64,000 nt of DNA from Promethearchaeota archaeon (lineage in GTDB: Archaea > Asgardarchaeota > Lokiarchaeia > Sigyniarchaeales > SOKP01), in assembly GCA_016839555.1 (NCBI GenBank), contig JAEOUA010000010.1, positions 64,001-128,000 on the forward strand. Reading direction: 5' to 3'. Below the pieces are notes generated by a model that was given only the letters and a program-made list of their open reading frames with translations, searched no databases and was not told the DNA's origin. Of this stretch, positions 61,550 to 62,182 are shown in pieces (within the stretch, counting starts at the first letter, position 1; every line of letters starts with the position of its first letter). Position numbers and translations under genes: made by a program.

Positions 61550-62182
61550 ATGGTTTCAGATAAAAAAAAGATTAATCGCGTTTTAGATTTCTTGAGAAAA
61601 GGGCTCACAAGTTTATCAGATGAATTAAGTGATGCCGTTAAGAATATTAACGATTTTATCGATTCCCTACAAAAAGCTGAGAAAGATCTGATAGGTATAT
61701 CTGTCTCAGAAGCAGTTCAAACAGTCAGTACTTCATCTAAACAAGTAGTCACCACTGCAAGCAATGCTAAGGTATCTGCTGCAAGTACTTTATTTAATTT
61801 GCTAAGTGGGGGGAGATCTTCTCCAGCTGCTCCGACAACCGCCAGTTTAGCGCCTGTCGCGGGACCACCGAAAGCACCCGCTGCTGGACCTCCAAAGGCA
61901 CCCGCTGCTGGACCTCCAAAACCACCTACCGCCGGACCTCCGAAAGCACCCGCTGCTGGACCTCCAAAACCACCTACCGCCGGACCACCGAGCGTGCCTG
62001 CCTCAGGTCCACCAAAAGCCCCTGTGACTCCTCCTAAGCCTCCTGTTGCTGGACCACCGAGTGCACCAACTACATCTGCCACACCTTCTACAACCCAAGT
62101 TGAAGGAGGAGGACTTTCTTCTCTCCGAGATGAAATGTTGGGTGAATTGGAAAGACTTAAGAAGATAATGCGTGGGGAATAA
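61550..62182 (+). CDS. Coiled-coil / proline-rich repeat / WH2-like protein
   Basis: N-terminal heptad helix, nine xGPPxxPx-type units, C-terminal LRDEMLGELERLKKI. Confidence 0.75.
   Translation: MVSDKKKINRVLDFLRKGLTSLSDELSDAVKNINDFIDSLQKAEKDLIGISVSEAVQTVSTSSKQVVTTASNAKVSAASTLFNLLSGGRSSPAAPTTASLAPVAGPPKAPAAGPPKAPAAGPPKPPTAGPPKAPAAGPPKPPTAGPPSVPASGPPKAPVTPPKPPVAGPPSAPTTSATPSTTQVEGGGLSSLRDEMLGELERLKKIMRGE
61859..62071 (+). repeat. Coding 24-bp tandem repeat (9 units) with a 48-bp higher-order duplication
   Basis: Units such as gctggacctccaaaggcacccgct; gcacccgctgctggacctccaaaaccacctaccgccggacc occurs twice. Confidence 0.9.

Follow-up and report, generated by a model that had tools for sequence, protein, structure and literature searches.

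A conserved family of proline-armed proteins in Asgard archaea with a portable end helix: a candidate docking module for actin

We analysed a window of 64,000 nucleotides from the genome of a Promethearchaeota archaeon (positions 64,001 to 128,000 of contig JAEOUA010000010.1, assembly GCA_016839555.1) and describe here one of its genes, designated T, which represents an undescribed, nearly universal family of Asgard proteins. The T protein consists of a head formed by a 47-residue heptad helix, a positively charged, disordered Pro/Gly-rich arm in the middle, and a 20-residue amphipathic helix at the end, which is nearly invariant and portable, i.e. it also occurs in other proteins. We propose that T may be a tether, whose end helix captures an external, slowly evolving partner, and we give this model as a whole about an even chance of being correct. 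An actin-related role is the single most likely reading of T, and actin is the leading candidate partner of the end helix, a tentative assignment when all readings are considered together.

Architecture of T

The ATG start codon of T is preceded, at a distance of only three codons, by an in-frame stop (coordinates of all features are collected in Table 1). A structural model was generated with AlphaFold2 (AF2) from an alignment of 27 orthologues. The initial annotation, made from the sequence of the window, had proposed an N-terminal heptad helix of about 50 residues, and the model indeed places a helix at residues 2-48, with a predicted local distance difference test (pLDDT) score of about 90; its hydrophobic residues recur at a regular spacing of 3-4 (hydrophobic moment 0.57), and this pattern is conserved across the 27 aligned sequences. 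The TLFNLLSGG motif, also pointed out in that annotation, is conserved among the orthologues and lies within a second predicted helix (residues 70-85, pLDDT about 65), in which A77, L81 and L85 are invariant; (F/W)xxL-related motifs are present in other families that have a soluble form of the protein. Residues 86-188 are predicted to be disordered, with low pLDDT and without secondary structure, and they are followed by the end helix (residues 189-208, pLDDT about 85). In the AF2 monomer these parts are not packed against each other, and this includes the tail and the head (predicted template modelling score, pTM, 0.25). T ends exactly in GGGLSSLRDEMLGELERLKKIMRGE.

The arm contains a tandem array of nine eight-residue units. 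All nine had been taken to be near-identical; the number of units is correct, but only five of them are near-identical (AGPPKAPA or AGPPKPPT), while four are degenerate. Tandem Repeats Finder detected periods of 24 nt (4.7-5.4 copies, 78-80% matches) and 48 nt (2.2 copies, 94%), and the high identity of the latter indicates that part of the array is a recent duplication. The GC content of the array reaches 0.64, in a genome with a value of about 0.27. A Gly/Ala-rich open reading frame (ORF) of 121 codons lies on the opposite strand, entirely within the array, and similar ones are found at orthologous loci; since CCN-rich repeats yield such ORFs, we regard it as a mirror artefact and not as a gene.

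Across the orthologues the arm cannot be aligned: it comprises 96-163 residues, with 20-41% proline, 5-19% lysine plus arginine and hardly any acidic residues. Its length drifts through gain and loss of repeats. The copy in the window lacks LPPxPKLPP, the central arm motif that most orthologues retain. The segments conserved across the 27 orthologues are the N-terminal helix, a TVSTSS stretch, AASTLFxLLSG and the tail.

Distribution of the family and its exchangeable head

A six-frame search identified a single-copy orthologue of T in 37 of 41 related genomes, representing four families of the order. Profile searches of a large protein collection yielded more than 200 homologues, mostly from sources named Promethearchaeota or Lokiarchaeota, and every one of them is named "hypothetical protein". 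These source names support an Asgard origin of the window, as do two Lokiactins in its genome and the presence there of Vps4 and of ESCRT-III, of the endosomal sorting complex required for transport (ESCRT). Comparison with the Pfam and NCBIfam models gave no match above threshold for T, for its membrane-anchored forms or for its companion gene c0 (see below); when the whole T protein was compared with Pfam-A by hmmscan at E values up to 1, DUF5917 was the only model reported (E 0.28).

Among 301 Asgard genomes (whose families are labelled here by f-numbers), the full-length profile of T has matches in 162. The profile of the tail alone has matches in 259, including 84 of the 90 high-quality genomes, mostly once per genome. 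Such a distribution is far beyond chance and shows that T is a real gene. We inspected 20 distant loci, and in each of them the end helix follows a proline-rich arm, while the front end is variable. In ten families (f1, f2, f3, f4, f6, f7, f12, f16, f23 and f25) the head has no membrane segment, and in seven it has between one and ten: one to three segments ahead of a coiled coil in f9, f11, f17, f19, f20 and f31, and nine or ten, in proteins present in 2-4 copies, in f26. A SHOCT domain was considered for the coiled coil of the membrane forms and rejected, as it produced sub-threshold matches alone (E 0.17-0.27).

One T-like metagenome protein of 549 residues (P0164) has an extra N-terminal membrane segment and, after the end helix, a TIR domain (PF13676, E 6e-18). 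It may be a genuine fusion to a defence-type domain, or the two parts may have been joined by gene calling.

Conservation of the end helix

The end helix conforms to the pattern LRxEMLxELxRLKxIM. Twelve tail positions are invariant within the order (L192, R193, E195, M196, L197, E199, L200, R202, L203, I206, M207 and G209), and free variation among 33 distinct Asgard tails is limited to positions 194, 198, 201 and 205. These four span about 80 degrees of the helical wheel, the remainder being fixed, including the charged residues R193, E195, E199, R202 and K/R204. The median identity of the tail core across families is 75%. The tails were extracted by pattern; however, the loci had been picked by profile searches and not by this pattern, which limits the circularity of the count. 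A helix so constrained is expected to be almost wholly buried, either in a partner or inside a bundle.

The initial annotation had interpreted the tail as WH2-like and the whole protein as similar to WASP or VASP. The overall plan on which this was based (heptad helix, proline-rich array, end helix) is real and, as the above counts demonstrate, strongly conserved, and the same order of an oligomerising helix, a proline-rich tract and a short basic amphipathic tail is found in the eukaryotic proteins; moreover, LKKI resembles LKK(T/V) by eye. A true homology of T with eukaryotic WH2 or Ena/VASP proteins, in which the tail would be an inherited actin-binding site (WH2 or EVH2), is nevertheless highly improbable. 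Searches of T with hmmscan at E values up to 1 revealed no match to the WH2 model (PF02205), nor to WH1/EVH1 or VASP_tetra, and the N-terminus is modelled as a single long helix. LKKI is present in 25 of the 27 orthologues of the order, but other Asgard families have LREI, IKEI, LKRL, LKAL, LKTL or LKSI at this position, and other carriers of the motif have LRNI, LRGI or LQEI. The tail helix is near-invariant across the phylum, but LKKI is lost outside the order, which, judged from the tails compared, is the very result that the annotation had named as refuting its proposal. The predicted helix 189-208 runs continuously through LKKI, in contrast to the WH2 arrangement of a helix, a linker and an extended LKKT segment, and the distance from the helix to LKK, read from the sequence, is three residues shorter than in WH2, a shortfall that had been noticed at the outset. 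It had likewise been recognised that the proline runs are short: in the window T holds PP pairs alone, within GPPKAP units. Runs of five or more prolines, of the type bound by profilin, are absent from T, and orthologues have LPPxPKLPP at most.

When the tail profile was compared with the sequences of all solved structures, no significant match was obtained; the nearest sequences were GCN4 zippers, and no WH2 or VASP chain was matched. We therefore conclude that T is not a recognisable WH2 or VASP protein. A possible likeness of GGGL..EM to the F-actin-binding segment of VASP, judged by eye, was given no weight.

The end helix in other proteins

The tail profile detected the motif in three further, unrelated proteins encoded by the window's own genome. 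The first, similar to DUF4140 at a sub-threshold level, has a short Pro/Ala linker and ALRQEMLSELNRMKK in a disordered tail, ahead of a conserved KTQRMRNLAL terminus; of its 16 orthologues, 5 have the motif, and no match was found for this protein among solved structures. Its gene is directly followed on the 3' side by a gene of 228 codons, and two relatives (G008 and G022) have two adjacent copies of the family. The second protein, helical and rich in lysine and asparagine, has the motif DLKEKLYEELNRLKGIMAGE at its N-terminus. The third carries a degenerate version, LLRDQMLSELNNLKELI, ahead of a CPxCG...CCxCF Zn ribbon, and is homologous to a family with the full motif (P0217, E 6e-19). This Zn-ribbon protein belongs to an Asgard family in which some members are fusions of the motif and ribbon with polyproline and Ras/Roc GTPases (P0125, P0197 and P0204), and others have 2-3 motif copies ahead of the ribbon (P0132, P0151 and P0202).

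An exhaustive search of 1.84 billion representative sequences with the tail profile gave 97 significant matches, 14 of which were inspected. Every match with a source name is a protein from an Asgard metagenome-assembled genome (MAG), and there was no sign of eukaryotic relatives among the 97, which further argues against homology with WH2 or VASP. Some of these proteins contain several copies of the motif: P0122, a helical protein from a Candidatus Odinarchaeota MAG, has three tandem copies at its N-terminus, with a spacing of about 41 residues; P0132, P0151 and P0202 have two or three before a Zn ribbon; and in P0125, P0197 and P0204, identified with Pfam as Ras/Roc-type GTPase fusions, two copies flank a polyproline run. 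Apart from these GTPase matches, Pfam and NCBIfam gave nothing above threshold for the other carriers. The genes next to that of P0122 encode a Rad51-like protein, a CxxCxxCC protein and an amidohydrolase. Recurrence of the end helix in unrelated proteins is as expected of a partner-binding module.

The candidate partner of the end helix

In the tether model, the head would assemble the protein and, together with the co-inherited c0, fix it at a site, a task that would be performed by membrane helices in other Asgard classes. The end helix would dock a very slowly evolving cytosolic protein and hold it at the tip of the flexible arm. If this partner is actin, the helix may insert into its hydrophobic groove, as do the C-terminal helix of arcadin-2 on crenactin and WH2 helices on actin; in that case T would act in the manner of WH2 or arcadin-2 adaptors, while belonging to neither family.

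Several observations point to actin. Between motif-bearing families Lokiactin retains 70-98% identity, and is thus among the few partners as conservative as the end helix itself. The motif was not found in families f21, f24 and f15, in which actin is only 52-55% identical; in f24 (0 of 7 genomes with the motif, actin 55% identical) ESCRT-III and Vps4 are retained. In addition, six of the sampled f1 genomes have T, and in every one of these the gene lies within 5 kb of an actin paralogue with 40% identity to Lokiactin. 

A number of points weigh against this identification. Only one family shows linkage of T with the actin paralogue, and this may reflect an inherited order of genes; in other families the neighbours of T are housekeeping genes. 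The end helix is conserved around about 280 degrees, more than a binder of a one-face groove needs, and comparisons with Pfam and with solved structures revealed no sequence similarity to WH2 or to solved actin-binding peptides. Loki, Odin and Heimdall LC2 profilins have been reported not to bind VASP polyproline (PMC8410842), and a preprint on co-immunoprecipitation with Lokiactin, whose table uses in-house locus tags not linked to sequences, highlights only profilins, gelsolins, an Arf GTPase and BAR proteins (bioRxiv 10.1101/2025.11.30.690169). Single genomes of f13 and f10 have actin with 68-70% identity, and the motif was not detected in them. Furthermore, the argument from matching rates suits any slowly evolving partner, and the families in the actin comparison are few and related. 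Taking this into account, we consider it possible, if doubtful, that the LRxEMLxELxRLKxIM helix binds actin as a module specific to Asgard archaea, equivalent in function to WH2 but of independent origin.

The nearly complete burial expected of the helix could also be achieved without any external partner, if it formed a coiled-coil bundle that clusters T molecules and ties them to other carriers of the motif. Oligomerisation and binding to MIT had both been named as alternatives in the initial annotation. The hydrophobic residues occupy heptad positions a, d, e and g, with only a b/f stripe left free, as in bundles of three or more helices, and among solved structures leucine zippers come closest in sequence (EVARLKKL of GCN4). 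The three tandem copies of P0122 could form a single bundle, and the presence of the motif in several proteins of one genome would permit mixed assemblies. We nonetheless rate this explanation as unlikely: the phylum-wide invariance of the charged residues R193, E195, E199 and R202 exceeds that usual for a zipper of three heptads, T already has a long N-terminal coiled coil or a membrane anchor that could serve for assembly, and the AF2 monomer lacks packing of tail on head. These points are not decisive.

An external partner other than actin was considered as well. The end helix may be a MIM1-type motif docking the MIT domain of Vps4 (or another MIT), in which case T and the other carriers would recruit or regulate ESCRT/Vps4 on membranes. 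The Vps2/24/46-type ESCRT-III of the same genome terminates in DEKIDELEKELEKLKSKD, and tails of this type in Asgard archaea have been described as MIM1-like (PMC7240154). In a profile-profile comparison (hhalign) of T tails with 16 Asgard ESCRT-III tails, DEMLGELERLKK was aligned with DELEKELEKLKS over 12 columns, with a score of 18.6 (P about 2e-4) that was reached by none of 300 column shuffles (mean 7.5, maximum 14.5). Both tails are at the extreme C-terminus after a flexible linker, many forms of T are membrane-anchored, and family f21 is devoid of both the motif and detectable ESCRT. In relation to the MIM1 consensus, (D/E)xxLxxRLxxL(K/R), residues M196, L200, L203 and K204 of T are in register; position 7 is occupied by E199 and not by R, and the ESCRT-III tail of the same genome also has E there.

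This explanation appears quite improbable. The ESCRT-III tails vary widely between families (e.g. ...LERAIQSLENELGI and DDLEAEIQKLRKKE), and outside f1 the identity of the Vps4 MIT domain falls to 26-42% (in f11 and f26 it was detectable only with the Pfam model), in contrast to the near-invariant tail of T; parallel changes of ESCRT-III and T tails were looked for across families, and none was convincing. As mentioned above, f24 retains Vps4 and ESCRT-III without the motif. The T tail has further invariant residues absent from MIM1 (L192, R193, L197, I206 and M207), and in other carriers the motif is N-terminal, internal or tandem, which is unusual for MIM1. The ESCRT-III tail was not among the five best matches of the genome-wide search with the tail profile, and the pattern common to both, E-hydrophobic-x-(K/R)-L-K, is frequent in coiled coils, the GCN4 zippers being the best matches among solved structures. 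In the window's genome the Vps2/24/46-type ESCRT-III gene adjoins that of Vps4, the ESCRT-III genes lie away from T, and no match to Snf7, the ESCRT-III core, was found in T with Pfam. Actin continues to be our leading candidate for the partner of the end helix.

Neighbouring genes

The steadiest neighbour of T is c0, a small gene that is divergent from T in the window. It occurs no more than 3 kb away from T in at least eight families, and the pair is arranged head-to-head, tail-to-tail or co-directionally depending on the lineage. Matches to its profile were found in 62 of 68 genomes of f1, 6/7 of f2, 1/1 of f5, 1/1 of f6, 4/4 of f7, 3/5 of f12, 16/19 of f16, 6/6 of f23 and 3/3 of f25. The same search was negative in the families with membrane forms of T (f9, 0/28; f26, 0/21; f31, 0/11; none in f17, f19 and f20). 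Thus c0 was found only in families with the soluble form, with a single genus of f11 as the one exception. This co-occurrence among related genomes suggests that c0 may work with the soluble head, in which case it would be the functional equivalent of a membrane anchor. A second copy of c0 is present in the window's genome, and many f1 genomes hold at least two. The AF2 model of c0 has a pLDDT of 89; in comparisons with solved folds it gave Foldseek E values above 0.2 and a VIA-align Z score of 4.5 at best, so no fold could be assigned.

Downstream of T there is a long ORF with a TTG start, which occupies the place held in most related genomes by a gene for a PIG-L deacetylase, between T and the actin paralogue. 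The paralogue itself is followed by an ORF of 130 codons. The neighbourhoods of the membrane forms of T, of P0122 and of the GTPase fusion P0204 contain housekeeping or unrelated genes, and no actin, gelsolin, profilin or ESCRT genes were found in them. In family f31, a gene for an Arf-family GTPase of 307 residues, with a C-terminal extension of 130 residues, is located directly downstream of a membrane-anchored T; the motif was not found in this GTPase.

Table 1. Location of T, its parts and the other features discussed (positions are those of the window unless a contig or locus is named; G000, the window's own genome)
Feature	Position	Strand	Basis or remark
T, gene of proline-arm adaptor	61550..62182	+	210 aa + stop; ORF list and sequence
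N-terminal heptad helix, residues 2-48	61553..61693	+	AF2, hydrophobic spacing, alignment
Second short helix with AASTLFNLLSGG motif, residues 70-88	61757..61813	+	AF2 and alignment
Disordered cationic Pro/Gly-rich arm, residues 89-185	61814..62104	+	Tandem Repeats Finder, AF2, orthologue composition
Nine-unit AGPPK(A/P)P(A/T) array, residues 104-174	61859-62071	+	within arm of T
Tail: Gly cap, then docking helix	62105..62179	+	alignment, tail profile, AF2
Putative docking-helix core LRDEMLGELERLKKIM	62123-62170	+	within tail of T
Antisense ORF, 121 aa	61717-62082	-	mirror artefact
c0, 88 aa	61036..61302	-	conserved neighbour, divergent from T
c0, second copy	G000:C8:37186-37437		
ORF of 1319 aa	62328..64000, continuing to G000:C10:130287	+	no Pfam match; context only
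Actin paralogue, 371 aa	G000:C10:130557-131642		4.4 kb downstream of T; Pfam Actin 289 bits
Lokiactin	G000:C1:435605-436717		
MIT domain of Vps4	G000:C11:272150-272389		
DUF4140-like protein, 241 aa	L091:850-1575 = G000:C1:511625-512350	+	tail profile, E 0.0012
Lys/Asn-rich helical protein, 311 aa	L092:679-1614 = G000:C9, ~76.5 kb	-	tail profile
Zn-ribbon protein, 152 aa	L093:1360-1818 = G000:C10, ~283.4 kb, outside window	+	tail profile
P0122, 344 aa	L168:8001-9035		three tandem motifs
Arf-family GTPase of f31	L047:2975-3895	-	downstream of membrane-anchored T

Significance

According to published work on Asgard actin, profilins and gelsolins are its only known regulators, and there is no report of a factor for nucleation, elongation or linkage to membranes. 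If the end helix is indeed an actin-binding module, then T, the tandem-repeat proteins and the fusions with GTPases and polyproline could be the missing factors of actin assembly or of actin-membrane linkage in Asgard archaea, and would include a primitive, GTPase-controlled actin nucleation older than eukaryotes. Even if the partner is not actin, a docking motif common to membrane anchors and GTPases would mark a network of interactions that has gone unrecognised in the prokaryotes most closely related to eukaryotes. The family is nearly universal and single-copy, and its end helix is about as conserved as actin and re-used in fusions with Ras-like GTPases. How the membranes and GTPases of Asgard archaea are linked to the cytoskeleton or to ESCRT can therefore be addressed directly, with a short, synthesisable peptide and a few proteins.

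Comparison with known systems

The architecture of the membrane-anchored forms of T resembles that of ZipA of gamma-proteobacteria, in which a membrane anchor is joined through a long, flexible, Pro-rich linker to a C-terminal globular domain that binds FtsZ. The likeness is one of architecture only, in that the C-terminal module of ZipA captures a cytoskeletal protein: this module is a globular domain, in contrast to the short helix of T, and the two proteins have no sequence relation. Similarly, Ena/VASP proteins share with T an oligomerising coil, a proline-rich middle and a short charged C-terminal helix; T differs in the absence of EVH1 and VASP_tetra, in the reversed order of coil and tail, and in its proline runs, which are PP or short.

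The regulators of the WH2 type (WASP/WIP, MIM/ABBA, Spire and Cobl) contain a short amphipathic module located by proline-rich tracts, in single or tandem copies and in many architectures. They are often under the control of small GTPases, and in MIM/ABBA the WH2 at the C-terminus is accompanied by a helical domain at the N-terminus that mediates dimerisation. The T family shares with them the short amphipathic helical module, the proline-rich neighbours, the single or tandem copies and the variety of architectures. However, the tail of T is predicted to be a continuous helix of 20 residues, conserved nearly all round, without LKK(T/V), and so far found in Asgard archaea only.

The MIM1 tails of ESCRT-III (PMC7240154) resemble the tail of T in being amphipathic helices at the extreme C-terminus after a flexible linker, with local similarity of profile and the same register as in the ESCRT-III of the window's genome (hydrophobic-4, E7, L8, L11, K12). 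They differ in that conservation of the T tail far exceeds that of ESCRT-III tails or MIT, and its motif also occurs in N-terminal, internal and tandem positions.

The likeness of design is also evident, by comparison with the published description, in arcadin-2 of Pyrobaculum, a regulator of crenactin (PDB 5LY3). This archaeal protein has a conserved C-terminal helix, formed by its last 17 residues, after a non-conserved, unstructured linker, and this helix is by itself sufficient for the function, which it performs by binding in the hydrophobic groove of crenactin (PMC5173319). Arcadin-2 is a crenarchaeal protein whose gene belongs to the arcade cluster, and a sequence relation with T is not expected; T, in contrast, is characterised by an arm of proline-rich repeats, a head made of a coiled coil or of membrane segments, and a motif that is portable. 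Binding to the groove is established for arcadin-2, while for T, by analogy, it is a candidate mode of action. Arcadin-2 thus demonstrates that an archaeal actin can be controlled by a terminal helix carried on an unstructured linker.

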